Part shown: positions 1 through 47,114 of the stretch, one piece after another
How the letters are laid out: each line of letters starts with the position of its first letter
Position numbering within the stretch: the first letter of the stretch is position 1
Origin: Candidatus Binataceae bacterium
Lineage (GTDB): Bacteria; Desulfobacterota; Binatia; Binatales; Binataceae
NCBI GenBank assembly: GCA_035531675.1
Contig: DATKSL010000033.1
Location: 27,367-91,366 of the forward strand
DNA: 64,000 nt
Direction: 5' to 3'
The notes under the pieces: generated by a model
Seen by the model: only the letters and a program-made list of their open reading frames with translations
What the model was told of the DNA's origin: nothing
Databases searched by the model: none
Translations under genes and position numbers: made by a program

Positions 1-1821
1 GGTGACGGGATCGATATCGGCACGATCGCCGACGAACAGGTAGTCGAGGCTGAGCGTGACCTGGTCGGCCGGGAGCCAGAGCCCGTGGCCGATGTACTGC
101 AGCAGCCCGAAGGCCGATTTCTTCGGCACGCGCACCGGCTCGATGGTCGGCGAGACGGCGACGTGGGTTTCGTCGATCCAGGTGAAATTGCCGCTCAGGG
201 TCAAACCCGGCAACAGTCCCACGGTCGGGACGAATTCGACGCCCTGCACGTCGACCCGCTCGGCATTGGCGGCCTGTGAGAAGATCGGCGGCGGCAGCGG
301 CACCGCGACGATCAGGTTGTGCACGCGGCGCGAGAAGTAGGTCATCGTGATCGAGAAGTGCTCGCCGAAGGTCTTGGTCACGCCGCCGTCATACTCGCTG
401 GAAATTTCCGGGCTCAGGTTGGGATTGCCGAAGAACGGATAGAACAGCTCGTCGAAGGAGGGCGCTCGAAAGCCTTCGCTGTAGCTGCCGCGCAGGGTGA
501 GGCCGTAGCGCGCCAGCGGAATCGACACCGCCCACGACGAACTCTCCTCCTTGCCGAACTCGCTGTTGCCGTCGACGCGAAAACCGCCGGTGGCATTGAT
601 CAGGCCGTGCAGCAGCGAGGCCTCCTGCTCGACGTAGCCGGCGTACTCCTGGCGCCGGGAATGGAAGACGGTCGTCGATGTCGACCCGAAGCCGCTGAAC
701 TCGTCGAGCGAGCGCGCCCATCGATCCTTGAAATCGAAACCCACCAGCGTGCGCACGTGGCGGGTCCAGGAATAGTCCGCCTCCCAGGTGGTGCCGCGGA
801 TCTCATCGGGGATGCGGTCGATCTCGGTGAACGGGTCGGCCGGGAAGGACGGCGCGTTGATTCGCAGGTCGTCGCGCACGAAATAGCTGCTGATGTTGGT
901 CCGCAGCCGATCGCCGAAGCGATGGTCGACTTCGCCCTTGAAGAGCATGAACTCGTCGCGCTGATGGGCGGAGGGATCGATGGTTGGAATGAAGTTGGTG
1001 AGATTGGCGAGACTCACGTTGGAGCGGAAATAGCGGGCGAAGCCGCGCACCGCGGTATCGGCGGTCGGCTGGTAGTCGAGCCGCAAGGCGCCCGCCAGGT
1101 TGTCCGAACTGTCGTTGACCACGCGATAGCCGCTGGTCGAGTTGTACGAGAGCGAACCGGCATAGCCGAGCGCGCCGCTCGAGCCGCTGAGCGTCGCGAC
1201 CTGGCGCTCGGTCGCGCGATTGCCGCCCTCCGAGGTGAACGTAAATTGCGGCGCGCCGTGGCCCTGCTCGGTGAGCAGGTTGACCACCCCGCCGATCGCC
1301 TGCGAGCCGTAGAGCGCCCCGCCGGCCCCGCGCACCACCTCGACGCGGCTCAGCCCTTCGGTCGTGATATCGCTCAGATTGAAGCTGCCGGTCGCACCGC
1401 TGTTGACCTCGACCCCGTCGATCATGATGAGCGTCTGGGCCGCGGTCGCGCCGCGAATCGACACGTCGGTGACCGATCCCGGCGAGCCGCTCTGCGTCAC
1501 CTGGACGCCCGGCACCTCGCGCAGGACGTCGCCGGCGTCGTAGATCTTCTGACTCTGGATTTGTTGCGAATCGATGACCGAAACGGTCGTCCCGATCTCG
1601 CTCAGCGGCTGGCGTATCCGGGTCGCCGTGACCACTACCATCGGCAGAGTCTGAGCGCTCTGGCCGGAACTGTTTTTCGTCGCGCCAGGCGACGGTTGCG
1701 CAGTCGGAGTCGGAGTCGCCGAACTCGCTGCGGTTGCGGAACCGCTGTCGCAATCAGCCGCTCGGCCGCCGACCGTCAGCCATACCATCGCCACACAGAA
1801 CAGCACACCTGCTCGCTTCAT
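1..1821 (-). CDS. TonB-dependent outer membrane receptor, BtuB-like (5' end and start codon present; 3' end runs off the window)
   Basis: Not in the ORF track because it has no stop inside the window. Minus-strand translation from the ATG at 1821 (preceded by AGGGAGG) gives MKRAGVLFCVAMVWL... then a canonical TonB plug (VVVTATR...DVLREVPGVQVTQSGSPGSVTDVSIRGA...LIMIDGVEVN...GLSRVEVVRGAGGALYGSQAIGGVVNL). A cobalamin riboswitch lies in its 5' leader. Confidence 0.85.
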   Translation of the reverse strand, partial: MKRAGVLFCVAMVWLTVGGRAADCDSGSATAASSATPTPTAQPSPGATKNSSGQSAQTLPMVVVTATRIRQPLSEIGTTVSVIDSQQIQSQKIYDAGDVLREVPGVQVTQSGSPGSVTDVSIRGATAAQTLIMIDGVEVNSGATGSFNLSDITTEGLSRVEVVRGAGGALYGSQAIGGVVNLLTEQGHGAPQFTFTSEGGNRATERQVATLSGSSGALGYAGSLSYNSTSGYRVVNDSSDNLAGALRLDYQPTADTAVRGFARYFRSNVSLANLTNFIPTIDPSAHQRDEFMLFKGEVDHRFGDRLRTNISSYFVRDDLRINAPSFPADPFTEIDRIPDEIRGTTWEADYSWTRHVRTLVGFDFKDRWARSLDEFSGFGSTSTTVFHSRRQEYAGYVEQEASLLHGLINATGGFRVDGNSEFGKEESSSWAVSIPLARYGLTLRGSYSEGFRAPSFDELFYPFFGNPNLSPEISSEYDGGVTKTFGEHFSITMTYFSRRVHNLIVAVPLPPPIFSQAANAERVDVQGVEFVPTVGLLPGLTLSGNFTWIDETHVAVSPTIEPVRVPKKSAFGLLQYIGHGLWLPADQVTLSLDYLFVGDRADIDPVT

Positions 1822-1954
1822 AGCCTCCCTCGCGGTAGGCGCGAGCCTCACGCGAGCAGGTGGAATCAGGCGTGCAGGTCCGAGTTCCGATCCAGATCAG
1901 AGCTCAGGTGAACCAAGCCCGAAGCCGCCTTCCCCGCGGAAGGTCAACGCCAGT

Positions 1955-2095
1955 ATCACCCGGCCGGTCTCCTGGCTTGGGGGTGGTAACCTTGGGCCCG
2001 CCTTCCCGCTTGCGCAGTGGCCTATTGGACCCTCGTTCCCCCGTACAGTTGCGGGGCAGCGCCGGACTCTAACCGGCTTCCCGTACACCGAGTGT
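1955..2095 (-). promoter_or_regulatory. Cobalamin (AdoCbl) riboswitch in the leader of the TonB-dependent receptor
   Basis: Minus-strand sequence GGTGTACGGGAAGCCGGTTAGAGTCCGGCGCTGCCCCGCAACTGTACGG...ATAGGCCACTGCGCAAGCGGGAAGGCGGG...GCCAGGAGACCGGCC matches the cobalamin riboswitch core (GGGAA..GGTnAnAnTCCGnCGC..CCCGCnACTGTA), the B12 box (GCCACTG) and the 3' GCCAGGAnACCnGCC element. Confidence 0.8.
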
Positions 2096-2149
2096 GACCG
2101 AGATTTTTATTCCCGCGGTGGCGGCTGAGTCAAGAGCGATCAGAGGACG

Positions 2150-2192
2150 CGAGAGCAACCGCGTTTCACCGCATACCGGAAACGCGGTCGCT
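2150..2192 (-). terminator. Stable hairpin downstream of tpx (15-bp stem with one mismatch), probable terminator
   Basis: gagagcaaccgcgtttc accgcataccg gaaacgcggtcgctc. It sits between the tpx stop (2212) and the riboswitch 5' end. The downstream U-tract is weak. Confidence 0.4.
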
Positions 2193-2211
2193 CCCGCCCT
2201 GGCCAGCCTGA

Positions 2212-2733
2212 TCAGGCCGCGGCCTTGCGCGCGGCCGCGAGCGCCGCTTCGTAGTCGGGATGGTTGGCGATTTCCTTGACGTACTCGGCATGGACCACGT
2301 TGTCATTGCGATCGAGCACGAACACGGCGCGGGTCAGCAGATGCAGTTCCTTGATCAATGCGCCGTACTTCTGACCAAACTCGGCGCCGCGCCAGTCGCT
2401 GAGCGTGGTGACCTTGTCGACGCCCGCCGCGCCGCACCATCGCGCCTGCGCGAACGGCAAATCCATCGAGATCGTCAGAATCTGCACGTCGCCGGGCAGC
2501 TTGGCCGCCTCTTCGTTGAAACGCCGCGTCTCAGCGTCACAGACCGGGGTATCGATCGAGGGGATGCTCGCGATGATCTTGACCTTGCCCTTGAACTGGT
2601 CGAGTCCGACCGGTGCCATGCCCTTGCCGACGCTGCTGAAGCCGGGCGCCTTTTGTCCGGCTTTCAACTCCGGCCCGACCAGCGTCATCGGATTGCCGCG
2701 CATCGTAACTGCTGCCTTACGCTCTTCAGCCAT
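2212..2733 (-). CDS. tpx: Thiol peroxidase Tpx (atypical 2-Cys peroxiredoxin)
   Basis: 173 aa; SIPSIDTPVCDAETRRFN and LPFAQARWCGAAG motifs typical of Tpx; AAGGAG RBS 10 nt before the ATG. Confidence 0.9.
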   Translation of the reverse strand: MAEERKAAVTMRGNPMTLVGPELKAGQKAPGFSSVGKGMAPVGLDQFKGKVKIIASIPSIDTPVCDAETRRFNEEAAKLPGDVQILTISMDLPFAQARWCGAAGVDKVTTLSDWRGAEFGQKYGALIKELHLLTRAVFVLDRNDNVVHAEYVKEIANHPDYEAALAAARKAAA

Positions 2734-2890
2734 TGGATTTGCTTCTCCTTGGAATTGTTGGGTGAGAGACTGACTCTAGTCGCAAGCGGCGCCACGGTAA
2801 ACATTTCGCGCTGCTGACTTCCCGCGAGCCAGCGACTAAAATGGATGTTTGCCGCCTTTACGAACCATCGATAAAGCTGCAGGAAGTGAT

Positions 2891-3550
2891 ATGCGGGGCA
2901 CAGGACGGCGATCCTCATCGATACTCAACGGGTCCGGGACCGGCGATCGAGAACGGCGTAATTCCGGCAGCGGGCGCATCCGCCTGCCCGTCGGCAAGCC
3001 GCTGGTTGCGGTTTTTGGCAGCTCGGCGGCGCGCCCCGGCGACGGTCTCTACGAGCAGGGCTATCGGATGGGCGAACTGCTGGGCCATGCCGGTTTCAAC
3101 ATGATGACCGGCGGCTACACGGGGCTGATGGAGGCGGCGAGCCGCGGCGCTCATCAGGCCGGCGCCCACGTGGTCGGAGTCACGCTCGATCGTTTCGAGG
3201 GCAAGCCCAATAGCTACGTGATAGATGAAATTCCGACCGCGAGCTTTTGCGGCCGCTTCCGATGGTTGATCGGCCGGGCCGACGCCTATGTCGCGCTGCG
3301 CGGCGGGATGGGCACGCTGGCGGAAGTCAGCTTCGCCTGGCAGGAGCTGGCGGTCGGGATGATCGCGCCGCGTCCGCTGCTGCTGGTCGGGCCGGCGTGG
3401 CGCGCAATCGTCACGAGCTGGCTTGAGAACTGCACCACCGCAGCCGAAAAATACGCCGTCATGACATTGGTCGATAGCCCCGAAGAGGCCTGCGCCGCAC
3501 TGTCAGAGTTCTTCGCCGGCCATCCGGTTGCGCCGCGTGCGGCGCGCTGA
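2891..3550 (+). CDS. LOG family protein (cytokinin riboside 5'-monophosphate phosphoribohydrolase-like Rossmann protein)
   Basis: VAVFGSS...TGGYTGLMEAASRGA...GVT...RGGMGTLAEV motifs. ATG at 2891 has an AGGAAG RBS; the track ORF begins at a TTG at 2849. Confidence 0.7.
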   Translation: MRGTGRRSSSILNGSGTGDRERRNSGSGRIRLPVGKPLVAVFGSSAARPGDGLYEQGYRMGELLGHAGFNMMTGGYTGLMEAASRGAHQAGAHVVGVTLDRFEGKPNSYVIDEIPTASFCGRFRWLIGRADAYVALRGGMGTLAEVSFAWQELAVGMIAPRPLLLVGPAWRAIVTSWLENCTTAAEKYAVMTLVDSPEEACAALSEFFAGHPVAPRAAR

Positions 3551-3557
3551 ACCGGGG

Positions 3558-4451
3558 TCAACTCGACGCGAAGCGGGCGCGGCGCTCCGCCTCGATACGC
3601 TCGGCCTCCTCACGGCCCGGCTGGCGCGGCATGAATCCCGGCCGATAGTCGCGCTCCTCCCAGCCGTGGTCGGTGGAATCCCATACGTACGGCAGTTTGA
3701 CGATCGTGCCCGGCGCGTTGATCGATTCAAAGGCGCCGAGCGCATCACGGATGATCGCGCGCTGCAGCTCGGGATCGTCGGGCTTGCCGGTCTGATGGCC
3801 GAGTGGGAAATTCACGAACACCGCGCGCGGCGGCTTGACCGCCTGCGTGATATCGAGCGCCGAGGTCATCGTCAGGGTTGGAATCCCGGCTTCCTCGACC
3901 ACGCGTGCGATCAGTCCCACGGACTGATGGCATACGGGTCAGGCGGGAACCTGGTAGAACGCGTCGGCGTGCGCCGCCTTGAGTTCCGCGACGATAGTGG
4001 GCGCCAGCTCCTCGCGGACCTTGCGCGCCGAGTAGATGCCGCCCATGAAGCTGAAGGCCGGGTCGACCAGTTCGCCGATGATTCCCGCGCGCTCGAACTC
4101 GCGCAGCCGCTCGAGCGGAAAGACGCAATTGGGATCGCGCGCCGCGTCGGCGGTCGGGTAGCCGAAGTGCCAGATGGCAAGCTCGTCGCGCCGCGCGTGC
4201 TTCGGGATGCGCCGGTACGAGGCGTCCTCGCGATGGAAGCGGGGCTGATCGCGATAGAGAATGCCGCCCGAGCTCATCAGCGCCAGCCGGCATTGGGCGA
4301 GCGGGCGGGCCAGCGGCGTCCACGGGATGCCGTCGTTGACCACCCATCGATAGGGTTCGTACTGGCTGTAGAGTTCGCGCGTCCGCGGTATGTAGTCGAT
4401 AGGCATCTCGGCGTTGCTCCGTGCGGTTGAGCCTTCAAGCCTGGCCACCAA
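3558..4451 (-). CDS. Selenoprotein, glycine/betaine/sarcosine/D-proline reductase selenoprotein B (GrdB/PrdB)-like; in-frame TGA (Sec) at 3941..3939
   Basis: Track ORFs 3939..4451 and 3558..3920 are in the same frame and separated only by one TGA. Read-through gives ...AFYQVPA-U-PVCHQSVGLIARVVEEAGIPT..., i.e. a UxxC motif. A SECIS-like hairpin sits 10 nt downstream and a tRNA-Sec is at 19165..19260. Family assignment is from general sequence character (VVEEAGIP...) and is tentative. The start codon is uncertain (TTG/GTG at 4451/4448, or an internal ATG). Confidence 0.6.
3910..3928 (-). promoter_or_regulatory. SECIS-like hairpin downstream of the UGA codon
   Basis: mRNA 5'-AUCAGUCC GUG GGACUGAU-3' is a perfect 8-bp stem starting 10 nt after the UGA, with a G/U-containing apical loop as in bacterial SECIS elements. 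Confidence 0.5.
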
Positions 4452-4549
4452 GCTTTCCGGGGTCTCGATTCCGGGCCGCTGGCGTCAGCACCCGCGCGAT
4501 TGGACAATAGTATAAAGCTTCACATCTTGCACCTGCGCTGGAGCAAACG

Positions 4550-6346
4550 ATGGCACTACGAATCGAGGATTACGCACTGATTGGCAACACCCTGACGAGT
4601 GCCCTGGTGGGGCGTGACGGTTCGATCGACTGGCTATGCATGCCGCGTTTCGACTCGGGCGCCTGCTTTGCCGCGCTACTCGGGGGACCGCAGAACGGGC
4701 GCTGGCTGCTCGCACCGGACGGCGAAATTCTCGGCACTCGGCGATCCTATCGCGGCGACACGCTGATCCTCGAGACCGAATTTCGCACCGCCGATGGAGT
4801 GGTTGCGATTATCGATTTCATGCCGCTTGCCGAGCACGGCGAGCATGTCGATGTGGTCCGGATTGTCGAGGGTCGCCGCGGCGCCGTGCCGATGAAGATG
4901 GAACTCAGCCTGCGCTTCGACTACGGCAATGCCATCCCGTGGGTGGTGCGGCGCGATTACGGATTGCGCGCCATCGCGGGTCCCGACGCGGTCGTGCTGC
5001 GCACCCCGGCGCGGTTGCATGGCAAAGACTTCACCACCGTCGCCCACTTCACGGTCAGCGAGGGCCAGTCAATCCCTTTCACCATCACCTGGTACCGGTC
5101 GCATCTGCCGGAGCCCCCCGGCCGTCAGCCGCGTCGACTGCTGGATGAAACCGACCGCTACTGGACCGCCTGGTCGGCGCGCTGCTCCTACCATGGACCA
5201 TGGCGCGACATCGTGATGCGTTCGCTCATCACTCTCAAGGCGTTGACCTACGGGCCGACCGGCGGAATCGTGGCGGCGCCGACCACGGCGCTGCCCGAAC
5301 AGCTCGGCGGCGTGCGCAACTGGGATTACCGGTTCTGCTGGCTGCGCGACGCGACCTTCACACTCTATGCGCTGATGTCGTCGGGCTACACTGACGAAGC
5401 CCGCGCCTGGCGCGAGTGGCTGCTACGCTCAGTCGCCGGCCATCCGCAGGAACTTCAGATGCTCTATGGAATCGCCGGCGAGCGGCGGCTCACCGAGCTC
5501 GAATTGGATTGGCTCGACGGTTACGGGGGCAGCCGCCCGGTACGAATCGGCAATGCTGCGCACGCGCAGTTCCAGCTCGACGTGTGGGGTGAGGTGATGG
5601 ACGTGCTGCACCTCGAACGCCGGCACTCGATCGCGCATGGCGAAGAGACCTGGAACCTGCAGCTCGCGCTGATGGACTTTCTCGAAGGCGCCTGGGACAA
5701 GCCCGATAATGGAATCTGGGAGGTGCGCGGTCCGCTGCGTCATTTCACGCATTCGAAGGTGATGGCATGGGTGGCGTTCGATCGCGCCGTCAAGGCGGTC
5801 GAGATGTTCGGCCTGGAGGGTCCGGTCGAACGATGGCGCGGGCTGCGCGACCGGGTTCGCGCCGACGTGATGCAGTCGGGGTTCAGTCGCGAGCGCCAGG
5901 CCTTCGTTCAGTACTTCGGCGCCGACAGTCTCGATGCGTCGCTGCTGATGATGCCGCTGGTCGGATTCATTCCCGCCACCGACCCGCGCATGCTTTCGAC
6001 AGTTGCGGCGATCGAACGGGAGTTGACTCATGACGGCTTCGTCAAACGCTATGCGACCCAGGAAAGCGTCGAGCATCTGCCGCCCGGAGAGGGCGCGTTT
6101 CTGCCCTGCAGCTTCTGGCTGGCGGACAACCTGGCGCTGGCGGGCCACGAAACCAAGGCGCGCGCAATGTTCGAACGACTGCTCTCATTATGCAACGACG
6201 TCGGCTTGATTGCCGAAGAGTACGATCCCGAATTGAAACGTCTGCTGGGCAATTTCCCGCAAGCCTTCACGCACGTCTCGCTGATCAATTCAGCCTGCAA
6301 CCTGAGCCTCGCGCGCGGCCCGGCTCATCACCGCGCCGCCTCCTAG
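4550..6346 (+). CDS. Glycoside hydrolase family 15 (glucoamylase/trehalase-like)
   Basis: 598 aa; GH15-type N-terminal beta-sandwich plus (alpha/alpha)6 catalytic domain motifs (WDYRFCWLRDATF, NGIWEVRG, AEEYDP); GGAG RBS. Confidence 0.8.
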   Translation: MALRIEDYALIGNTLTSALVGRDGSIDWLCMPRFDSGACFAALLGGPQNGRWLLAPDGEILGTRRSYRGDTLILETEFRTADGVVAIIDFMPLAEHGEHVDVVRIVEGRRGAVPMKMELSLRFDYGNAIPWVVRRDYGLRAIAGPDAVVLRTPARLHGKDFTTVAHFTVSEGQSIPFTITWYRSHLPEPPGRQPRRLLDETDRYWTAWSARCSYHGPWRDIVMRSLITLKALTYGPTGGIVAAPTTALPEQLGGVRNWDYRFCWLRDATFTLYALMSSGYTDEARAWREWLLRSVAGHPQELQMLYGIAGERRLTELELDWLDGYGGSRPVRIGNAAHAQFQLDVWGEVMDVLHLERRHSIAHGEETWNLQLALMDFLEGAWDKPDNGIWEVRGPLRHFTHSKVMAWVAFDRAVKAVEMFGLEGPVERWRGLRDRVRADVMQSGFSRERQAFVQYFGADSLDASLLMMPLVGFIPATDPRMLSTVAAIERELTHDGFVKRYATQESVEHLPPGEGAFLPCSFWLADNLALAGHETKARAMFERLLSLCNDVGLIAEEYDPELKRLLGNFPQAFTHVSLINSACNLSLARGPAHHRAAS

Positions 6347-6818: not shown

Positions 6819-8174
6819 GTGAACATGAGCGGCTCACGTCAATTGCGTCTTGGCGCTTTCATGCGACCGGTGAGTATCCATACCGGTGCGTGGCGCTACC
6901 CGGGCGCCTTTCCTGATGCGAACTTCAACTTCGGGCACCTGAAACGCTTCGCGCAGACGCTCGAGCGCGGACGCTTCGACGCGTTCTTCATGGCCGATCA
7001 TCTGGCGGTGCTGAATATGCCGATGGAGGCGCTCAAGCGCAGCGCCACCGTGACCTCGTTCGATCCGCTGACGCTGCTGCCGGCGCTGGCCGCGGTGACC
7101 GATCATCTCGGCCTGATCGCGACGGCCTCCACGACCTACAACGACCCCTATCATGTCGCCCGGAAATTCGCCTCGCTCGACTACATCAGCGGTGGCCGCG
7201 CCGGCTGGAACCTGGTCACCACTTCCAACCCTGATGCGGCGCGCAACTTCGGATTTGAAGAGCATCTCGAACACGCCGAGCGCTATCGGCGGGCACGCGA
7301 GTTTTTCGACGTCGTCACGGGGCTATGGGATAGCTGGGCGGATGATGCTTTCATCCGCGACGTCGAGGGCGGCGTCTTTTTCGATCCCGACAAGCTGCAC
7401 ATCCTGAATCATAAGGGGCCGTATTTCTCGGTCCGCGGACCGCTCAATATCGCCCGACCGATCCAGGGCTGGCCCGTGATCGTGCAGGCCGGAGCTTCCG
7501 AGGCCGGCCGTCAGATCGCGGCCGAAACGGCGGAGGCGGTCTTCACCGGCCTGGGGACGCTGGCCGAGGGCCAACGCTTTTACGCCGACGTGAAGGGGCG
7601 CATGGAGAAGCTCGGACGGCCGCGCGACCATCTGAAAATTTTGCCGGGTGCGTTCGTGGTGGTGGGAGAAACGCTCGCCGAGGCGCAAAAGAAACGGGCG
7701 CTGCTGGACAGCCTGGTCCATTATGAAAGCGGCATCGCTTCGCTGTCGATCGCGCTCGGCTGCGACGCATCGATCTTCGATCCCGACGGTCCCCTGCCCG
7801 AGATTCCCGAGAGCAACGCGAGCAAGAGCGGACGGGAGCGGATGGTCGAGATGGCGAAGCGCGAAAATCTGACCGTGCGGCAACTCGCGCAGCGCGTCGG
7901 CGGCTTTGCCGGGCTGGCGATGGTCGGCACGCCGGCCATGATCGCCGATCAGATGGAGGAGTGGCTGGTCACCGAGGGCTCCGACGGGTTCAACGTCATG
8001 TTCCCGTATCTGCCGGGCGGACTCGATGATTTCGTCGATCGCGTGGTGCCCGAATTGCAGCGCCGCGGCCTGTTCCGGCGCGAATACGAAGGGACCACGC
8101 TGCGCGAAAATCTTGGCCTGCCGCGCCCGGAGAACCGCTTCTTCTGTAATCGTCGAACCGCACGCACCGGATGA
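6819..8174 (+). CDS. LLM-class flavin-dependent monooxygenase, NtaA/SnaA/DszA (nitrilotriacetate monooxygenase component A) family
   Basis: 451 aa; NtaA-family motifs (FMADHL, GRAGWNLVTTSN, VQAGASEAG); AAGAGGTG RBS. Confidence 0.85.
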   Translation: MNMSGSRQLRLGAFMRPVSIHTGAWRYPGAFPDANFNFGHLKRFAQTLERGRFDAFFMADHLAVLNMPMEALKRSATVTSFDPLTLLPALAAVTDHLGLIATASTTYNDPYHVARKFASLDYISGGRAGWNLVTTSNPDAARNFGFEEHLEHAERYRRAREFFDVVTGLWDSWADDAFIRDVEGGVFFDPDKLHILNHKGPYFSVRGPLNIARPIQGWPVIVQAGASEAGRQIAAETAEAVFTGLGTLAEGQRFYADVKGRMEKLGRPRDHLKILPGAFVVVGETLAEAQKKRALLDSLVHYESGIASLSIALGCDASIFDPDGPLPEIPESNASKSGRERMVEMAKRENLTVRQLAQRVGGFAGLAMVGTPAMIADQMEEWLVTEGSDGFNVMFPYLPGGLDDFVDRVVPELQRRGLFRREYEGTTLRENLGLPRPENRFFCNRRTARTG

Positions 8175-8217: not shown

Positions 8218-9597
8218 TCAGCGGCGCGCGCGGACTTTCCGCGGCGCGCTGCTCATGTAGTCGAGCCAGGCGCGGAATTGATTACGAATCGGCAGCTCGC
8301 TGGTCCCCAGACCGGTGGTCGTTCCATCTGACCGAACATCGTCGTCCAGGTTGCGACCCAAATCGATCCACTCAGGACGTTTCGCCGCCAACCCTTCCTG
8401 CACCCGATTGTAGATCTCGACGTCGTCAGCCATCACCATCGCGGACGGCGAGTTCTGCACGTTCGCAAAGGTCAGCGCCCGCGAACTGTTCTCGGCGGGC
8501 GCTCCGAGCAATCGGAACTGATAGGCCTCGACCACAGTGCGATCGACGGCCAGCGGCCTGATAACCCGCATCTGCTGATAGGCGGCCTGGGTAGTGACGC
8601 TGGGATAGATGATCGTGTTGTGGCGATTGACGGACAGAATCTCTGCCGCGCGCTGCCGGCCGTGACTTTTCTCGAGCGCCGTCACATAGGACGGCGGGAA
8701 ATTGGCCGGGTTGAAGAATCCGCCGATAAAGCTATGTCCCCGCGGGTATACCGTCGAGCCGATTTTTTCCCAGGTTTCATACGATGAGCCGTTGCGCTCG
8801 ACCGCCGAGATTATTTCAGCGGCAAAAGAGCGGGCCAGCGACTGGTCGTCCTCGGCGAGCCGTGTGCGGGCCGCCTCCACCGTGGATTCATGGACTACCC
8901 GCGCATGCATCGCGTCCATCAGGTTTTCGAGGAACAGTTTCCAGTTGGCACGCATCAGCAATCGGAACGGGCGCCCGGCGAGCTCGATGCGGCCAGCCGG
9001 CGAGCGGTTGACCATGTCAGTCAGCGAACTGACCGTGCCGCCGAGAAATTCCTTGAGGCCGGGTCCGCCGCTGGCGAGCTTGCCGAAGACGAAGCCGCTG
9101 AAGCTGTCGATACATGGCAGCCGTTGCATCGAAAGCTCCGCGCTTGCGGCCCGCAACCGAGCCTGATCGTAGCCGCGTCGCAGTGGGACCGACAGCAGCG
9201 CGCCGTCGTGGCGGAAGGTCCAGCCGTGATACGGGCAACGAAGGAACGCGACATTGCCCCCAGGCAGCGCCGCAACCTTGTTCCCGCGATGACTGCAGCG
9301 GTTGTAGAGGGCATGCAGCGCGCCCTCGCGGTCCCGCGTCAACACCACCGGTTGATTACCGATGGTCGTGGTCAGAAAATCGCCGGGTTCGGGTAGCTGG
9401 CTCTCGTGGCCCAGAAAAACCCAGGCGCGGCCGAAGATGCGCTCCATCTCGAGCTCGAAGATCGCCGGATCGGTGTAGACGCTGCCATGCACCCGCTCGC
9501 GCTTGACCAATTTTCTGATCGCCGCAGCGCTATACTTGTTATGGTTCATATCGATCTTCAGGTTGCGATAATCCGGCTTCAGCGGCCCGTCGGCCAC
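8218..9597 (-). CDS. Rieske [2Fe-2S] ring-hydroxylating oxygenase alpha subunit
   Basis: CSHRGNKV...CPYHGW Rieske motif plus a catalytic domain. It lies 18 nt downstream of the hyuB-like gene on the same strand. Confidence 0.85.
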   Translation of the reverse strand: MADGPLKPDYRNLKIDMNHNKYSAAAIRKLVKRERVHGSVYTDPAIFELEMERIFGRAWVFLGHESQLPEPGDFLTTTIGNQPVVLTRDREGALHALYNRCSHRGNKVAALPGGNVAFLRCPYHGWTFRHDGALLSVPLRRGYDQARLRAASAELSMQRLPCIDSFSGFVFGKLASGGPGLKEFLGGTVSSLTDMVNRSPAGRIELAGRPFRLLMRANWKLFLENLMDAMHARVVHESTVEAARTRLAEDDQSLARSFAAEIISAVERNGSSYETWEKIGSTVYPRGHSFIGGFFNPANFPPSYVTALEKSHGRQRAAEILSVNRHNTIIYPSVTTQAAYQQMRVIRPLAVDRTVVEAYQFRLLGAPAENSSRALTFANVQNSPSAMVMADDVEIYNRVQEGLAAKRPEWIDLGRNLDDDVRSDGTTTGLGTSELPIRNQFRAWLDYMSSAPRKVRARR

Positions 9598-13699: not shown

Positions 13700-14926
13700 C
13701 TACTGGCTATCGGCCATGCGCGCGACATTGCGATAGAAGCTGCGCAGCAGCACCTCGTTGTCCTGCAGGACGTATTCCTTTAGCACCCCCGAGCTGACCC
13801 CCTCCCAGGTGCTTTCCAGCGTGCTCAGATCTTCCAGCCAGACATCGCGATTGAGCGCCTTCTGATACTCCCAGGTGAAGCGCTCCGACGGGGTGCGCGG
13901 CAGCGGCTGATACATGCGCGTCTCCTGGCGCGTCATGCCGAGCGCGGTCGGCCACATCTCGTGGGTGAAGTAGAAGCCGTTGAAAAGCCCCAGCCACAGG
14001 TTGGGGAAGATCAGGTAAACATCGAAGGCCCAGTTCTCAGTGCGGGTCGGATTGAGGCCGCGCGGGAATTTCTGGAAATCGGAAAAGCCGAAGAGCCGGC
14101 CCATGCTCCAGCGGTTTTCGACCCGCGCCGTGATATCGCGCACCGGCGTATGCCAGTTGCCGTAGCCCGGATAGGAGCCGCGCATATGAGGGCCGAACAG
14201 GCTGATTTCGAGCGGATGGCAGAACGGATTGTCGCCGCCGAGGTGAACGTCGCCGAGCGTGTGCCGATGGAGGAAGGCGACGTGATAGCCCTCGATCTGA
14301 GCGTCGACGGCGAGCTTCCAGTTGCAGCGCAGATCCTCCGCGTAGCCGAAGCTGAACGGGATGCTGAAGGGGTAGCCGGCGACCTCGTCGACCACCGGGC
14401 CCAGGTACTCGCGCAGCGTCTGGGGTGGATGCGGATCGAGGTTGATAAAGACGAAACCCTGCCAGATCTCGGTGGCGACCGGCACCAGTCCGTGGGCCGG
14501 CTTATCGAGATGGTCGAAGTTTTCCTCGTCGGGTACGCCCGTCAACCGGCCGGAAAAGTCATAGGACCAGCCGTGGAACTTGCAAGTCATCAACCGCGAT
14601 TCGCGCCGCCCACACTGCTCACGCGAGACTCGATTGCCGCGATGCGAGCAGACGTTGTGAAAGCCGCGCACCTGGCCATCCTTGCCGCGCATCAGCAGTA
14701 TCGAGGCGTTGCACACCGGCAGATCCCGCACCACGAAGTCGCCCGGACGCGGCAATTCCTCTTCGCGCGCCGCCTTGAGCCAGCAGCGCCGGAAAATGCG
14801 CTGGCGCTCGAGTTCGTGAAATTCCGGCGACATCAGCCGTGTAATCGCCAGCGGCCCCCGGTCGAGTTCCGGATGGGCTTCCGTCCAATGGGTGATGTGG
14901 CCAACGTCCATCGCACTCTCCGTCAT
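13700..14926 (-). CDS. Rieske [2Fe-2S] ring-hydroxylating oxygenase alpha subunit
   Basis: CSHRGNRV...CKFHGW motif; 408 aa. Confidence 0.85.
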   Translation of the reverse strand: MTESAMDVGHITHWTEAHPELDRGPLAITRLMSPEFHELERQRIFRRCWLKAAREEELPRPGDFVVRDLPVCNASILLMRGKDGQVRGFHNVCSHRGNRVSREQCGRRESRLMTCKFHGWSYDFSGRLTGVPDEENFDHLDKPAHGLVPVATEIWQGFVFINLDPHPPQTLREYLGPVVDEVAGYPFSIPFSFGYAEDLRCNWKLAVDAQIEGYHVAFLHRHTLGDVHLGGDNPFCHPLEISLFGPHMRGSYPGYGNWHTPVRDITARVENRWSMGRLFGFSDFQKFPRGLNPTRTENWAFDVYLIFPNLWLGLFNGFYFTHEMWPTALGMTRQETRMYQPLPRTPSERFTWEYQKALNRDVWLEDLSTLESTWEGVSSGVLKEYVLQDNEVLLRSFYRNVARMADSQ

Positions 14927-19164: not shown

Positions 19165-19260
19165 GGAGGAGGAAGGGGCCCGGTGGCCCCACCGGTCTTC
19201 AAAACCGGCTTAGCGGGCATTGCGCTTGCTGGAAGGTTCGACTCCTTCCCCCCTCCGCCA
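19165..19260 (+). tRNA. selC: tRNA-Sec (selenocysteine tRNA, anticodon UCA)
   Basis: GGAGGAGG-AA-GGGGCC/CGGT/GGCCCC (6-bp D stem, 4-nt loop)-CCGGT/CTTCAAA/ACCGG (anticodon UCA)-long variable arm-GAAGG/TTCGACT/CCTTC-CCCCCTCC-G-CCA. The 8+5 acceptor/T geometry, long variable arm and D-arm match bacterial selC; the loops are identical to E. coli selC. Confidence 0.85.
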
Positions 19261-24888: not shown

Positions 24889-25821
24889 GTGGCAACCGGC
24901 AATATCCCATGCGGCATCGGCATTCCGCAGAATTTCGCCAATTCCCGACTCGATCTGAAGCTGATTCACGACTTCGCGCCGCGCGCCGAAGCACTCGGCT
25001 ACGACAGCCTGTGGGTGCAGGAGCAGATTATCACCGACGCTCCGCTGCTCGAGCCGGTGACGCTGATGACTTACGTCGCGGCGTTGACCACCAAGGTACG
25101 CATCGGCTCCTCGGTGTTGCTGATCGTGATTCGCAACCCGGTGCAGCTCGCCAAGAGCCTGGCCACGCTCGATCAGCTCAGCCAGGGACGGCTGATCGCC
25201 GGCGTCGCGATCGGCGGCCCGCACGTGCCGGAAAAAGTCTTCGGCGTCGGCGGCGGCAAACGCTCGCGCCGCTTCATCGAGGCGCTCGCAGTCATCAAGG
25301 CCTTATGGACCCAGCCGAAAGCCACCTTCAAGGGCGAGTACTGGAATTTCGAGAACATCCCGATGGAGCCCAAGCCGCTCCAGAAGCCGCATCCGCCGCT
25401 ATGGTTCGGGGCCCGCACCGAAATTGGCTTGAAACGCGCGGTGCGCCTTGGCGACGGCTGGATGGGCCCGGGCTCGACCTCGACCGCCGATTTCGCCGAC
25501 CATGTTCAGATCGTGCGGCGGCAGTTGGAGGCGACCAAACGCGATCCGGCGAACTTCCCGATCTCCAAGCGTGTCTACCTAGCGGTCGACGAGAATCGGG
25601 ATCGCGCCGAGCGCCGGCTGCGCGAGTGGTTCCAGATGCGCTACAAGAACGCCGCGATGGGCTCGCAGGTCTCGATTTGGGGCGGCAAGGCGGAGGTTAC
25701 CGACAAACTGCGCGAGCTGGTGCGCGCCGGCGCCCAGCATCTGCTGCTCAACCCGGTGTTCGAAGAAATGGAGCACGCCGAGCTGCTGGCCGGCGAGGTA
25801 ATGCCGCACCTGCAGGGCTGA
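24889..25821 (+). CDS. LLM-class (luciferase-like) flavin/F420-dependent oxidoreductase
   Basis: 310 aa TIM-barrel LLM motifs; GTG start with a GGGAGG RBS. Confidence 0.8.
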   Translation: MATGNIPCGIGIPQNFANSRLDLKLIHDFAPRAEALGYDSLWVQEQIITDAPLLEPVTLMTYVAALTTKVRIGSSVLLIVIRNPVQLAKSLATLDQLSQGRLIAGVAIGGPHVPEKVFGVGGGKRSRRFIEALAVIKALWTQPKATFKGEYWNFENIPMEPKPLQKPHPPLWFGARTEIGLKRAVRLGDGWMGPGSTSTADFADHVQIVRRQLEATKRDPANFPISKRVYLAVDENRDRAERRLREWFQMRYKNAAMGSQVSIWGGKAEVTDKLRELVRAGAQHLLLNPVFEEMEHAELLAGEVMPHLQG

Positions 25822-27455: not shown

Positions 27456-28670
27456 TTACCGCGATCGCTCAGTATTGCCAACGCTCGCGGGCCGGCTCTC
27501 GGTCGCCTGCTGGTTCATCACCTTCTTCCATTGACGCCAGATGCCGCGCTGCGAGACCTCATCGCGCAGGTCGCCGACGATTCCGAGGGCCGGGTCGGCG
27601 CGTTCGCGATGCTTCCCGCGCGAGAACAGAATCCACGGCTCGGTCGTCGCGGCGAAGCCGGCCTGCACGCGCTCGAAAACCTCGGTATCGTCGGGGCTGC
27701 CGCCGCCTGCCGAGCCGAAGAAGCCCTCGTGCTCGCGCAAGCGCAAATAACTCGCTTGCTCGGAAGCGCCCTTGACCAGGGTCGGGATGATAGTCACCTC
27801 GGTGTGATCGACGCCGACCGGCTGAATCATCCGCATCTGGATTCCCACCAGCGCCAGGTTCGGGAAGATAAACAGGATAACCGCGCCCGCCTGCGAGACC
27901 GGCACGGCTTGCGTCAGGGTCACGTGGCCACCGCCCAAATCACCGGTCGCGCCCTGGAACTTCTCGACGGGATTCGCGGCGCCGGGCCCGAGATCCTTCT
28001 CCACCGCCAGCATCACCGATTGATGGACGAACGGCGGATGATAGCCGTCGAGCGAGTTTTCGACCTGCAGCTTCCAGTTTCCGCGGTAGCGGTACTTGTG
28101 CAGCCCGATCGACGCATCCAGTTCGCCGCCCCGGGAAACCTGTGCGATCCAGCGATCGAGCAACCCGCGCCCGCGTCCCAGATGCTCGTCGAACGTGATT
28201 CCGGCCGGGCTCACACTGCCGAAGATGAAGCCGTGATGTTCGCCGATGCGCGGCACTTTGACCAGCCCGTATTCCTCGCGCCGGAATTGTTCGTCGTAGC
28301 CATCCGGATACGGTACTCCGGCGAGCGTGCCGTCGAGCTTGTAGGTCCAGCCATGATAGGCGCATCGAAAGCTGCGCGCGTTGCCGCGCTCTTCGCTGCA
28401 GACGGTGGCGCCGCGATGGCGGCAGCGGTTGAGCAGCAGGTTCACCTGCCCGGCCTGATCGCGCACCATGATGACCGGCTGCCGGCCGATCCGCTTGAGC
28501 CGGAAGTCGCCGGGGTTGGGCACTTCGCTGGCGTGGCCGACGAAGACCCATCCGCGATGGAAGATACGCTCCAGTTCGTCGTCGAAGATTTCCGGATCGG
28601 TGTAAAGGCGCGAATGGACTCGATCCGGCTTGATTAGCGTGTCGTAATCTCTGGCCGATTTCTTTTTCAT
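27456..28670 (-). CDS. Rieske [2Fe-2S] ring-hydroxylating oxygenase alpha subunit
   Basis: CRHRGATV...CAYHGW. The start at 28670 (MKKKSARDYDTLIKPDRVHSRLYTDPEIF) aligns with the N-terminus of the paralog at 58743. Confidence 0.85.
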   Translation of the reverse strand: MKKKSARDYDTLIKPDRVHSRLYTDPEIFDDELERIFHRGWVFVGHASEVPNPGDFRLKRIGRQPVIMVRDQAGQVNLLLNRCRHRGATVCSEERGNARSFRCAYHGWTYKLDGTLAGVPYPDGYDEQFRREEYGLVKVPRIGEHHGFIFGSVSPAGITFDEHLGRGRGLLDRWIAQVSRGGELDASIGLHKYRYRGNWKLQVENSLDGYHPPFVHQSVMLAVEKDLGPGAANPVEKFQGATGDLGGGHVTLTQAVPVSQAGAVILFIFPNLALVGIQMRMIQPVGVDHTEVTIIPTLVKGASEQASYLRLREHEGFFGSAGGGSPDDTEVFERVQAGFAATTEPWILFSRGKHRERADPALGIVGDLRDEVSQRGIWRQWKKVMNQQATESRPASVGNTERSR

Positions 28671-28818
28671 CTTTTCCGCTGGATGCCCGAAATCGTTACG
28701 CGCCGCTCTCATCCCTTATATCAAGAAAGCGCGCGAACGTTTATGATCCACGGCTCTTTATCCGGCAGGTAAGCCTTACCGGGTCGCGAGGCAAACCAAG
28801 CTCCGCTGAGCCATTCGG

Positions 28819-29454: not shown

Positions 29455-30531
29455 TCAAGGCTGCGGATGCTGCTGGGTCAGGCAGTGGACGGTGCCGAGT
29501 CCCCAAACCAGATCGATCGCGGGAACGCCAACCACCTGACGACCAGGAAAAAGCTTCCCCAATATTTCCTGGGCTTGTAGGTCGGCGGGGCAATCGAAGT
29601 GCGGCATTACGACCGCGCCATTGGCGATATAGAAATTCGCATATGATGCCGGCAGCCGCGTCCCGTCGTGATAGAGCGCCGGCGGCATCGGCAGCGTCGC
29701 GATTTTGAAGGCGCGGCCCTCGCGATCGCGCATCGCCTCGAGCCGTCGCAGGTTGTCGGCCAGCGGCCGGTAGTTATCGTCCGCCGGATCCGGTTCGACG
29801 ACCGTGACGATCGTGTCGGCGCTCACGAAGCGCGCCAGATCGTCGACGTGCCCGTCGGTATCGTCGCCGGCGATTCCTTCACCCAGCCACAGCACTTTCT
29901 CCGCGCCGAGATAGGTCGTCAGGTAGTCCTCGATCGCGACGCGCGTCAGGCCGGGATTACGATTCGGATTCAGCAGGCACTGCTCGGTCGTAAGCACGAG
30001 GCCGGCGCCGTTGACGTCGATCGAGCCGCCTTCCATCACGATTCCCGGCTCGATCACCTCGAAACCGAAGCGCAGGCCGAGCTCGCGCGGCACCACGTCG
30101 TCGAGCGTCCAGGGGCCGTATTTTTCGCCCCACGAGTTGAAGCGCCAGTCCAGCGCGATCTGGACGGGCCCCGCGCCGGCGCCGCGCCGGTTGATAAAGA
30201 TTGGGCCGTGATCGCGAATCCAGGAGTCGTTGGTCGCGACCGGCACGAACTGCAGCCGCTCGGCCGCGGCGGCGACGCCCGATTTCCCGAGCTCGGCCAC
30301 CACCATCGCCTGTGCCGCGGCCTGCGCCGCCGCATCCTGCACCAGGATTCGCACCGGCTCGAAGCGCGCGATCGCGGCGGCGAGCCGCGCGAAAGCCGGC
30401 GGGATACGTTCGAAGGTGCCGGGCCAGGTATCGCGGTTATGCGGCCATACCAGGTAGGTCGCCAGATGCGGCGCCCATTCCGCCGGCATCCGGTAGCCCT
30501 TCGTCAACTCGCGATGTCGAATCGGGATCAC
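29455..30531 (-). CDS. aguA: Agmatine deiminase
   Basis: GYRMPAEWAPH N-terminus, catalytic C near the C-terminus (GTVHCLTQQ). Confidence 0.85.
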   Translation of the reverse strand: MIPIRHRELTKGYRMPAEWAPHLATYLVWPHNRDTWPGTFERIPPAFARLAAAIARFEPVRILVQDAAAQAAAQAMVVAELGKSGVAAAAERLQFVPVATNDSWIRDHGPIFINRRGAGAGPVQIALDWRFNSWGEKYGPWTLDDVVPRELGLRFGFEVIEPGIVMEGGSIDVNGAGLVLTTEQCLLNPNRNPGLTRVAIEDYLTTYLGAEKVLWLGEGIAGDDTDGHVDDLARFVSADTIVTVVEPDPADDNYRPLADNLRRLEAMRDREGRAFKIATLPMPPALYHDGTRLPASYANFYIANGAVVMPHFDCPADLQAQEILGKLFPGRQVVGVPAIDLVWGLGTVHCLTQQHPQP

Positions 30532-30537
30532 GGCCGG

Positions 30538-31419
30538 CTAGAGCCGGAAGCGACGCGTCAGATCCTGGTAGGCGTCGATTCGCCGGTCGCGCAGGAACGG
30601 CCAGTTGCGCCGGGTCGTCTCGATTTCCGCCAGGTCGCATTCGACCACCATCGTCTCCTCGGCGTTATGGCTGGCGCGCGCGATCACCGCGCCGAACGGA
30701 TCGGCGACGAACGAGCCGCCCCAGAAGTCGAGTCCATCCTCGACTCCGACCCGGTTGACCGCCGCGACGAAAATTCCGTTGGCGATCGCATGGCCGCGCT
30801 GCACGGTCTCCCAGGCGTCATATTGGCGCCGGCGCACGCTCTCGATCTCCTGGAGATCCCAGCCGATCGCGGTCGGGTAGAAGATCATCCGCGCGCCGGC
30901 CAGCGCCACCAGCCGCGCCGCCTCGGGAAACCATTGATCCCAGCAGATCAGCGCGCCGATTCTGCCGCGCGCGGTCGGATGGGCCGTGAAATCGAGATCG
31001 CCGGGGGTGAAATAGAACTTTTCGTAGTAGCGCGGGTCGTCGGGGATATGCATCTTGCGGTAGCGGCCCGCCAGCCGGCCGTCGGCGTCAAGGATGACGG
31101 CGGTATTGTGATAGACACCCTCGGCGCGCCGCTCGAAGATCGAGCCGACCACCACCACCCTGGCTTTGCGAGCGATCGCCGCCAGCCGCTCGGTGGTCGG
31201 TCCCGGCACCGGCTCGGCGAGATCGAACGAGTGCGGGTCTTCGGTCTGGCAGAAGTAGCGCGAGCGAAACAGCTCGGGCAGGCATACGATCGTGGCGCCG
31301 CGCGCGGCGGCGTCCTCGATCGCGGCGACCGCGCGCGCCAGGTTGTCGTCGAGGCTCGGCCCACAGCTCATCTGGACCAGCCCGATCGAAATCCGATTGC
31401 CGTTGACGTCCATCGACAA
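30538..31419 (-). CDS. aguB: N-carbamoylputrescine amidase (CN-hydrolase)
   Basis: CN-hydrolase E-K-C triad context (ALICWDQWFPE); 6 nt upstream of aguA. Confidence 0.85.
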   Translation of the reverse strand: MSMDVNGNRISIGLVQMSCGPSLDDNLARAVAAIEDAAARGATIVCLPELFRSRYFCQTEDPHSFDLAEPVPGPTTERLAAIARKARVVVVGSIFERRAEGVYHNTAVILDADGRLAGRYRKMHIPDDPRYYEKFYFTPGDLDFTAHPTARGRIGALICWDQWFPEAARLVALAGARMIFYPTAIGWDLQEIESVRRRQYDAWETVQRGHAIANGIFVAAVNRVGVEDGLDFWGGSFVADPFGAVIARASHNAEETMVVECDLAEIETTRRNWPFLRDRRIDAYQDLTRRFRL

Positions 31420-31485
31420 GAACGCCGGCGGAACAATCCCGAAGGATTATCCGCCGGCGCAGTTTAGCGAGTTCGATGCGCTTGG

Positions 31486-37677: not shown

Positions 37678-38718
37678 TTACATCGCGGCCGCGCGCAGCA
37701 CCGGGATGGTGCCGGCGCCGAAGTCGCGATACCAATGTTTCTGCTCTTCCGGCGCTGTCCCGCGGCCGAAAATCGCGGCAAAGTGGCCGGCTCCGGAGCT
37801 GCGACACTGCGTTACGATCTGCTCGGCGACGGCGGCCGGCGTGCCGGCGATAAACTCCTCGTCGCCGATCGAAAATGCGTGCGCCGTCGGCGAGTCGAGC
37901 AGCGCGGGACGCTCGGGCGTGTCGACGCGCGGATCGACCTCCAGAAACTTGCGGAACTCGCGCCGCTGCGTCGCCATGATCGACTCGGCCTCGCGGTCGC
38001 TATCAAGCATCGTCACCACGCGGCGCAGGCAAATGTCTTCCGCTCCCACCTTGCGCCCGGCCTTGTCGGCTTCGTCGCGATAGGCGTCGAAAATCTCGAT
38101 CACCTTGCTCTGCGGATGGAAGCCCGTGCAGATCTTGGCGCCGCGGCGCGCCGCCTTGCGCGCCGACGCGGTGCTCACTACGGTCACCCATTTCGGCGGG
38201 GAGGGCTGCTGCAGCGGGCGTGGCGTCAGGCGCAAGTTGTCGAAATTCCAGAACCTGCCGTGATGCGAAATCACAGGACTGACGAGCGCCTTATCGACGA
38301 TCTCGAGCGCCTCGTCGTTGCGGGCGCGGGCTTCTTCCACGCCCAGCCCGACCTGCGCCATTTCCTGCGGGATACCGGCGGCGGTACCGATCTCGAGCCG
38401 CCCGCCGGTGAGATGGTCAAGCATGCCGATTTCCTCGACCAACTCCCACGGCGAATGATACGGCGGCACCACGCCCATCACGCCGAGCCGGATCTTTTTG
38501 GTGCGCAGCGCGACGTTGGCGATCAGCAGGTTGGGCGCGGGCGAATAACTGAGGCCGAAATGATGCTCGCTGAAAAAGATGCCTTCGAAGCCGGCAGGCT
38601 CAGCACTCGCCCAGAGATCGAGATAGGCGTTGAAATACCGTTGCGAAGCGTCCGGATCGAAGTGCTGCACCAGCGCGTGCGGCGAGCCAAAAAATTCAAA
38701 GATCCACGGTTTGATCAT
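37678..38718 (-). CDS. LLM-class flavin-dependent oxidoreductase
   Basis: 346 aa; luciferase-like TIM-barrel motifs. Confidence 0.75.
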   Translation of the reverse strand: MIKPWIFEFFGSPHALVQHFDPDASQRYFNAYLDLWASAEPAGFEGIFFSEHHFGLSYSPAPNLLIANVALRTKKIRLGVMGVVPPYHSPWELVEEIGMLDHLTGGRLEIGTAAGIPQEMAQVGLGVEEARARNDEALEIVDKALVSPVISHHGRFWNFDNLRLTPRPLQQPSPPKWVTVVSTASARKAARRGAKICTGFHPQSKVIEIFDAYRDEADKAGRKVGAEDICLRRVVTMLDSDREAESIMATQRREFRKFLEVDPRVDTPERPALLDSPTAHAFSIGDEEFIAGTPAAVAEQIVTQCRSSGAGHFAAIFGRGTAPEEQKHWYRDFGAGTIPVLRAAAM

Positions 38719-43771: not shown

Positions 43772-43852
43772 GGCAAATTTCGCAGGACTGCAACCTACGA
43801 TAGCGTGGCGCGGGACATCGGACTGCGGACCTGAGTGTAGTATCTGCGGGAA

Positions 43853-43888
43853 AACGAGGCCGGTATTCTTCCGGCCTCGTCCCTTTTC
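43853..43888 (+). terminator. Rho-independent terminator after the Big_2 gene
   Basis: cgaggccgg tattctt ccggcctcg followed by tcccttttctg. Confidence 0.6.
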
Positions 43889-43890
43889 TG

Positions 43891-43985
43891 CTCCGGGCGC
43901 GCCCCCGTGCCACACGGATTTCCCGCCTTTTCGGCCGCTCGCTAACGCCGTCTGACCTCCCTCGCTGACTCCCCGGAAATGCTCG
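43891..43985 (+). repeat. Short tRNA-Arg 3'-end fragment (ctccgggcgcgcc) followed by repeat copy R3
   Basis: 13-nt identity to the tRNA-Arg 3' end, then tttcccgccttttcggccgctcgctaacgccgtctgacctccctcgctgactccccggaaat. Confidence 0.6.
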
Positions 43986-44049
43986 GCGGCGGCGAGCGTC
44001 GGACCTGACAACAAGGCGGGCTGCTCGTCGCGTACCTCGCGAGGAATCT

Positions 44050-44565: not shown

Positions 44566-44873
44566 CGGCGACCCGCCGGGGTCTGCAGGCCGGCCGCCAC
44601 CCTGACCGCGCTGATTGGCTCTCCAGTTGGTCCTGATGCGCCCTCACGTTAAAGTCGATACGTTGGTCGTGCGGTATGGGATCAATCCGTCTGGCGGTTA
44701 CCAGGCACATCATCATTAGATAAGAGACGGGCAATCCCAACCTGAGTGATTAGAAGCTTTTGCGATCGCCGTGGAGCGGCGCATGGCCTCACGGCCTGAC
44801 TACTTGACTCGCTTCCGCCGCGACGTAGAATATCGCGTGAAGACGGGTTAAGAAGCGATAAATTGGGGCGGGC

Positions 44874-45140: not shown

Positions 45141-45194
45141 CCGCGCACACCACATCCTCTGGCTTTGTGATTGGACGCGCATGAGGCCGCGACG

Positions 45195-45959: not shown

Positions 45960-45962
45960 GCG

Positions 45963-47087: not shown

Positions 47088-47114
47088 CTATCCGTCGAGC
47101 CGGAGATAGAGTCA

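Follow-up and report, generated by a model that had tools for sequence, protein, structure and literature searches.

A PrdB-like selenoprotein gene with a conserved SECIS-type hairpin and a recurrent thiol peroxidase neighbourhood in Candidatus Binataceae

A 64,000-nucleotide stretch of a Candidatus Binataceae genome (assembly GCA_035531675.1, contig DATKSL010000033.1, positions 27,367 to 91,366; hereafter the window) carries on its minus strand, at 3558..4406, what is best explained overall as a single gene for a selenoprotein of the GrdB/PrdB superfamily, in which an in-frame UGA is decoded as selenocysteine (Sec) through a bacterial selenocysteine insertion sequence (SECIS) element; we assign this reading a probability of roughly 0.85. 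It draws on the conservation of the UGA and of the coding frame beyond it, on an RNA hairpin that is constrained at synonymous sites and covaries, on the pairing of Sec with Cys among homologs, and on a tRNA-Sec gene within the window.

Apart from one TGA (3941..3939), the reading frame is unbroken from the ATG at 4406 to the TGA stop at 3558. The initial annotation had described two minus-strand open reading frames (ORFs), 3939..4451 and 3558..3920, that share a frame and are separated by exactly this one TGA, with read-through giving a UxxC motif and with a perfect 8-bp hairpin 10 nt past the UGA; all of these features are present in the sequence. The read-through product is ...ADAFYQVPA-U-PVCHQSVGLIARVVEEAGIPT..., with U-P-V-C as the motif, and its second cysteine (Cys159) recurs in 72/72 Binataceae-type sequences and in most family representatives. 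An upstream TTG (4451) was considered as the gene start and ruled out; since the N-termini of homologs read MPIDYIPRT, matching the ATG at 4406, translation is taken to begin there. The GTG that serves as the apparent start of the second ORF is the loop of the hairpin.

A genome scan recovered 72 related loci, nearly all of them in metagenome-assembled genomes of Candidatus Binataceae or other Binatia, and the tblastn alignments span the TGA, from residue 1 to 282, in 72 loci. The homologous codon is TGA in 71 of the 72, each with PVCHQSVGLIAR in frame after it; the remaining locus, a Desulfobacterales homolog with 46% identity, has Thr at the Sec codon. A metagenome scan with N-terminal alignment A3 added a further 79 loci with TGA at this codon in every case (79/79), which brings the TGA-bearing loci to 150/150, in assemblies at about 55-90% protein identity. 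Comparison of the window gene with its 71 relatives gives a median ratio of nonsynonymous to synonymous substitution rates (dN/dS) of 0.14 for the 84 codons past the UGA and of 0.156 for the 84 that precede it. The part beyond the UGA is therefore translated, and it is under the same kind of constraint as the part ahead of it.

The hairpin consists of a 5' arm, AUCAGUCC, the loop GUG and a 3' arm, GGACUGAU, and is separated from the UGA by a 10-nt spacer (3938..3929), so that the three-nucleotide loop, of the form G-U-N, begins 18 nt past the UGA. The 71-nt local region has a predicted folding energy of -36.7 kcal/mol (z = -4.08), and none of 200 shuffled sequences was equally stable. Bacterial SECIS elements have been described as stem-loops that directly follow the UGA and end in a small, G-containing apical loop (PMC1088965); the 10-nt spacer and the small, G-first loop of the window hairpin agree with this description. 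A 3-bp extension of the lower stem, pairing the Cys codon with an Ala codon, was considered and rejected; its outer pair is open in half of the sequences, and the other two pairs are dictated by the codons.

Constraint on the stem is visible at positions where the protein sequence would permit change. Among 72 distinct sequences, the third positions of the stem codons for His (CAT), Gln (CAG), Ser (TCC) and Leu (CTG) have an entropy of zero, and the stem Gly codon is GGA in 70 of the 72 and GGG in the other two, where a G-U pair is retained; the Val codon of the loop and the codons of invariant Pro, Val, Ile, Arg and Leu residues outside the stem have third-position entropies of 0.9-2.0 bits. 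In more distant Sec homologs the position, the 8-bp length of the stem and the G-U-N loop are all retained, although the letters differ (ACCAGUCC/GGGCUGGU in L076, ACCAGGCC/GGCCUGGU in L079, ACCAGACC/GGUCUGGU in L093, L128 and others). Across 33 distinct sequences, the stem positions can pair in 98.5% of cells, compared to 9-40% when the partner arm is slid by 1-3 nt. Compensatory double changes occur at two of the eight stem pairs (13 cells in the same 33 sequences), and 0/500 shuffles reach the observed values; in the distant Sec homologs, pair 2 changes from U-A to C-G and pair 6 from U-A to A-U or G-C. The same 19 nt fold at -9.7 to -13.8 kcal/mol in Sec forms, versus -0.5 to -2.7 kcal/mol in homologs with Thr (L072, L073) or Cys (L074, L077) at the Sec position; in L073 the peptide HQSVGLI is identical, yet GGC-CUC codons break the stem. 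The hairpin is an RNA element, and it occurs together with the UGA. Its conservation in orthologous loci had been named in the initial annotation as a point to check, and it is found conserved, with covariation.

In bacteria, a SECIS hairpin recruits SelB carrying Sec-tRNA(Sec), and Sec is inserted at the UGA. If the window gene follows this established pathway, a ribosome arriving at the UGA of codon 156 would meet, 10 nt on, a hairpin that acts as a bacterial SECIS; SelB with its Sec-tRNA(Sec) would recognise the hairpin, and Sec would be incorporated at codon 156. The tRNA-Sec gene reported in the initial annotation, 15 kb from the selenoprotein gene, was recovered both by ARAGORN and by the Rfam model. 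A second Binatia genome (L024) also has a tRNA-Sec gene (1089..1184, minus strand), at about 7 kb from the ortholog; the loose linkage of selC and selenoprotein gene in these two cases may be a coincidence.

The expectation that automated pipelines would mis-call the gene is borne out by the databases, in which homologs are almost exclusively 155-aa products that end at the UGA. Such splitting by gene callers could also be taken as the mark of a pseudogene or sequencing error, in which a nonsense mutation divided an ancestral Cys gene into halves that are not made as one protein; against this stand the identical TGA in all 150 independent assemblies, the low dN/dS past the TGA, the hairpin constrained at synonymous sites and covarying, and the presence of a tRNA-Sec gene. 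On these comparative sequence data, a broken gene or a sequencing error is effectively refuted, with next to no probability left to it, whereas the conserved UGA and the Sec/Cys pairing among homologs argue for a genuine selenoprotein gene, as first proposed.

The assignment to a GrdB/PrdB-type protein, for which a profile search had been suggested in the initial annotation, is upheld by the Pfam model GRDB (PF07355), which matches with 43.5 bits (cut-off 22; E 3.4e-11). The best NCBIfam match is D_pro_red_PrdB (TIGR04483), with 168.7 bits (E 1.3e-49) over model positions 20-234 of 238; this score does not reach the equivalog cut-off of 300 bits. The selenoprotein B subfamily model TIGR01918 (57.4 bits, cut-off 65.45) and the GrdB model TIGR01917 (51.2 bits, cut-off 602) likewise remain below their cut-offs, with matches confined to about positions 209-422, and the GrdB/GrdF/GrdH models align through their C-terminal halves only (about positions 210-425, Sec site included). 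Judged by these profile scores, the predicted protein is a superfamily member of PrdB size that does not qualify as equivalog to any reductase subunit so far characterised.

The family comprises 1,638 clusters at 50% identity (E <= 1e-3). Among the best 150 of the 1,638 representatives, 68 have Cys at the Sec site, 36 end exactly at U, 3 have W, about 25 have other residues (Ser, Gly, Thr, Asp, Arg etc.), and 18 do not cover the site; Cys or Sec at the homologous position, another check proposed at the outset, is accordingly the prevailing state, and most full-length homologs have Cys (alignment A1). Residue variation at the two motif positions was seen among full-length representatives (P0105, P0124 from locus L073, L072, P0125, P0291 and others): some carry Thr, Arg, Ser, Gly, Asp or Glu at the Sec site and retain the second Cys, as in TPVCHQ and RPVCHQ, and others retain the first Cys and have lost the second, as in CPLDHQ. 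The database proteins P0141, P0212 and P0303 show W at the Sec position (e.g., LLVPVWPVCHQSVG); we suspect a second type of mis-annotation, in which a gene caller applied the wrong genetic code and translated TGA as Trp. In the AlphaFold2 (AF2) model of P0002, a Cys homolog that is 57% identical to the window protein (alignment A1; predicted local distance difference test score, pLDDT, 86), the motif lies between strand 148-152 and helix 156-171; by this model, U156-P-V-C159 would be situated at the strand end and helix start of a Rossmann-like alpha/beta domain.

Table 1. Coordinates of the selenoprotein gene, its decoding elements and other features of the window.
Feature	Coordinates	Strand	Remarks
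Predicted selenoprotein gene, complete	3558..4406	-	282 residues, Sec at residue 156; PrdB-like (GRDB superfamily) fold
In-frame UGA as Sec (U156), opening residue of U-P-V-C	3939..3941	-	Conserved TGA; mostly Cys in full-length homologs
Cys159 codon, presumed resolving cysteine of UxxC	3930..3932	-	Invariant in 72/72 Binataceae-type sequences
SECIS core	3910..3928	-	8-bp stem (3928..3921 with 3917..3910); 3-nt loop GUG (3920..3918)
tRNA-Sec (selC), anticodon UCA	19165..19260	+	ARAGORN; Rfam RF01852, 69.3 bits (gathering score 47)
Thiol peroxidase (Tpx), candidate partner	2212..2733	-	NF001808, 210.7 bits (cut-off 123); PF08534
Rieske-type ring-hydroxylating oxygenase alpha-subunit genes, at least 5	8218..9597, 13700..14926, 27456..28712, 58743..60044, 61771..63096		
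Luciferase-like (LLM) oxidoreductase genes, at least 4	6819..8174, 24889..25821, 37678..38718, 60630..61748		

The selenoprotein gene is flanked upstream by a divergent gene for a GH15 glycoside hydrolase (4550..6346, plus strand) and downstream by a convergent LOG/SLOG gene (2849..3550, plus strand), with 7 nt between the convergent stop codons; beyond the latter, 825 nt downstream of the selenoprotein gene and on the same strand, follows the gene for a thiol peroxidase (Tpx) that may be its functional partner (Table 1). Neighbours in related loci were counted by targeted tblastn of named genes, limited to loci with enough flanking sequence. The usual order in the clade, on the same strand and with short gaps, is [LLM oxidoreductase]-[GST]-selenoprotein-[MAPEG]-Tpx. 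In loci that come mostly from one clade (Binatia) and are not independent of each other, Tpx lies downstream on the same strand in 80/99 and MAPEG in 52/99, and on the upstream side GST is found on the same strand in 32/94 and an LLM gene directly adjacent on the same strand in 33/94. Distant lineages also have an abutting LLM gene, of different LLM subfamilies (L086; L128/L130/L152): in L086 it is MupA-like, with a stop that overlaps the selenoprotein start, and in L128 it is F420-dependent (TIGR03564). The Cys form of Dongia sedimenti is bordered by a flavin reductase gene on one side and GST genes on the other. Genes for PrdA/GrdE, PrdC, GrdA and thioredoxin reductase were absent by Pfam or ORF annotation from nine diverse neighbourhoods (L065, L072-L081), and no prd or grd genes were detected by NCBIfam or Pfam among the about 57 ORFs of the window. 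The description of the gene as stand-alone, with a LOG and a GH15 gene at its flanks, thus stands as far as grd and prd neighbours are concerned; it does not extend to the same-strand Tpx gene, which is a conserved neighbour across the clade.

Some further observations concern these surroundings. A LOG/SLOG-cluster4 gene placed directly between the selenoprotein gene and Tpx occurs only in the window and in its two closest relatives (L001, L002). Upstream of the selenoprotein gene, about 20 Binatia loci encode collagen-like proteins of Gly-X-Y repeats (GPQGPKGMQGPQGPTG...) whose N-terminus resembles a signal peptide (e.g., L013, 6730..7638, and L055, 4521..5561, both on the minus strand). Just beyond Tpx in the window lies a cobalamin riboswitch (RF00174, 109 bits; 1945..2107, minus strand), directly followed by a gene for a TonB-dependent vitamin B12 receptor (1..1851, minus strand; TIGR01779, E 3e-62) that runs off the window start; riboswitch and receptor are a classic B12-regulated uptake unit. 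A scan of 2000..4800 for promoters and terminators was uninformative.

By analogy with PrdB and GrdB (PMC13188914), the selenolate of U156 would attack the substrate, Cys159 would resolve the adduct to form a selenenylsulfide, and a thiol system would re-reduce the latter. The recurrent LLM-GST-Sec-MAPEG-Tpx order suggests a part in thiol/peroxide or electrophile defence, not in Stickland proline reduction; since the contexts examined contain no pyruvoyl partner (PrdA/GrdE), a canonical subunit of D-proline or glycine reductase is very probably not what the gene encodes. From this context we tentatively propose, at somewhat less than even odds, a stand-alone selenol/thiol oxidoreductase that acts alongside Tpx, MAPEG and GST in the defence against peroxides or electrophiles (glutathione-linked), and not a Stickland reductase. 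A broader version of this proposal, possible but more doubtful, is that the orphan PrdB-like selenoproteins found in aerobic bacteria of soil and sea form a distinct enzyme class that has dispensed with the pyruvoyl partner of the Stickland reductases and whose UxxC serves a Tpx/MAPEG/GST (+LLM) defence module as its selenium-dependent reductant or partner; such an enzyme may, for example, act as a Tpx reductase, or as a reductase of glutathione conjugates or lipid hydroperoxides.

One competing explanation, that the protein is a true PrdB subunit of a Stickland-type reductase of D-proline (or another amino acid), with PrdA and the accessory genes elsewhere in the genome, has to be measured against clostridial PrdB itself (Clostridium sticklandii, C. 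difficile; TIGR04483; Kabisch et al., 1999, cited in PMC13188914). The two proteins are homologous over nearly the full length, as is evident from the match to almost the whole TIGR04483 model; they are of similar size, share Sec in a UxxC motif (tabulated for PrdB in PMC13188914), and presumably also share the chemistry of selenolate attack followed by selenenylsulfide formation, and JGI labels the homologs as 'D-proline reductase (dithiol) PrdB'. The window protein differs in its score far under the equivalog cut-off and in a C-terminal extension of about 40 residues that is largely unstructured in the model. Moreover, prd genes are normally clustered (prdB-prdC operon, PMC13188914), whereas neither the window nor the nine diverse neighbourhoods contain PF09338/PrdA, PrdC or proline racemase; the conserved neighbours are instead Tpx, MAPEG, GST and LLM genes. 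The host also looks like an aerobe; the many Rieske oxygenase and LLM oxidoreductase genes of the window (Table 1) suggest an aerobic lifestyle and fit an aerobic degrader of xenobiotics or aromatics. A genuine proline reductase subunit is, on balance, very improbable. The selenoprotein could also be tied to the upstream LLM-class flavin/F420 oxidoreductase, in reductive C-X cleavage or as a catabolic redox partner, with Tpx, GST and MAPEG as neighbours by descent. Such a role would be in line with the LLM genes directly upstream in about one third of the loci, distant lineages with different subfamilies (L086, L128) among them, with the flavin reductase gene that adjoins the Dongia Cys form, and with the Grd/Prd precedent of reductive C-N cleavage; yet LLM genes are so abundant that adjacency arises easily by chance, as their number in the window illustrates, the window gene itself has no LLM gene directly upstream, and a common substrate cannot be deduced. 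We regard this role as unlikely, though far less so than the proline reductase subunit, and as the leading functional alternative to a part in defence.

Several observations weigh against the interpretation favoured here, of a UGA-decoding selenoprotein with a part in thiol-based defence. NCBIfam and Pfam scans found no selA, selB or selD among the about 57 ORFs of the 64-kb window. A PrdA-like partner may be encoded in another part of the genome. The Sec site is occupied by Thr, Ser, Gly or Arg in some homologs, so that not every family member is able to use U/CxxC redox chemistry; the family includes members unable to form the U/C-x-x-C couple. The neighbourhood counts inherit the non-independence of loci mostly drawn from Binatia, and the contexts of other distant homologs are mixed, with genes for acyl-CoA dehydrogenase, enoyl-CoA hydratase, thiolase, sulfite reductase and CoA ligase. 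In the window the cluster is broken by the divergent GH15 gene upstream and by the LOG gene ahead of Tpx; co-transcription of selenoprotein gene and Tpx is unlikely here, because the LOG gene that separates them is on the opposite strand.

PrdB-type UxxC selenoproteins have a substantial environmental record. In the Sargasso Sea they ranked third among selenoprotein families by abundance, with 42 genes (Zhang et al., 2005; PMC1088965), and 235 Sec and 110 Cys sequences, assigned to pfam07355, placed them among the top families of the Global Ocean Sampling (GOS) metagenomes (Zhang and Gladyshev, 2008; PMC2398784); reviews have placed the family under D-proline reductase (PMC9312934; PMC13188914). 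The Sargasso/GOS family and the window protein have in common the pfam07355 assignment, Sec in UxxC, and a SECIS with a small, G-containing apical loop, and in both cases Sec and Cys forms exist side by side. The marine sequences come from oxic environmental samples; they were listed without genomic context or host, whereas the window gene belongs to a soil Candidatus Binataceae bacterium whose relatives show the recurrent [LLM]-[GST]-Sec-[MAPEG]-Tpx order. Matched by its published description, the Sargasso/GOS family is most probably the one to which the window protein belongs. GrdB, GrdF and GrdH (PF07355, TIGR01917/01918), which are the substrate-specific selenoproteins B in the reductases for glycine, sarcosine and betaine, correspond to the window protein in their C-terminal half and Sec site; they have about 430 residues, whereas the window protein, with 282, is without the N-terminal half of about 200, and its gene has no grdA, grdE, grdC or trxB neighbours. 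Thioredoxin-fold UxxC selenoproteins (Sec-Trx, Prx-like and DsbA-like) offer a further parallel, with UxxC at a strand-to-helix junction, a peroxiredoxin-type gene association and a similar working mode.

Elsewhere in the window, the stretch 42000..49300 has a GC content of 0.57-0.61, compared to about 0.62-0.67 in the remainder, and its ORFs 42089..43771, 45171..45959, 45963..47087 and 47115..48434 have no NCBIfam match; this segment may be acquired DNA. A 599-aa ORF (29668..31467) was set aside as an apparent antisense artefact.

The PrdB-type UxxC family is thus already known, and what is new is its member in a Candidatus Binataceae genome. Literature searches returned no assigned function for the family beyond the clostridial enzyme, and nothing on the function of orphan PrdB proteins, on the missing pyruvoyl partner, or on the Tpx/MAPEG/GST/LLM neighbourhood; the combination of an absent pyruvoyl partner with this conserved neighbourhood seems not to have been described before, and is offered as a lead rather than a result. 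The locus is a clean case of a SECIS element whose constraint can be read from frozen synonymous sites alone and which is gone from the homologs with Cys or Thr. The Binataceae fragments are currently named 'glycine/sarcosine/betaine reductase selenoprotein B family protein' by NCBI, and 'GrdB family protein' and 'D-proline reductase PrdB' also occur in databases; as a consequence of such mis-annotation, Stickland proline reduction may be wrongly assigned, or a need for selenium overlooked, when the metabolism of Binatia and other soil bacteria is reconstructed. If the orphan PrdB-like selenoproteins do form a distinct enzyme class, the Grd/Prd superfamily would extend to a second function that is compatible with oxygen, and a role would be found for a selenoprotein family that ranks among the most abundant in the environment; the conserved [LLM]-[GST]-Sec-[MAPEG]-Tpx arrangement provides a concrete, testable functional hypothesis for this abundant ocean family (PMC2398784).

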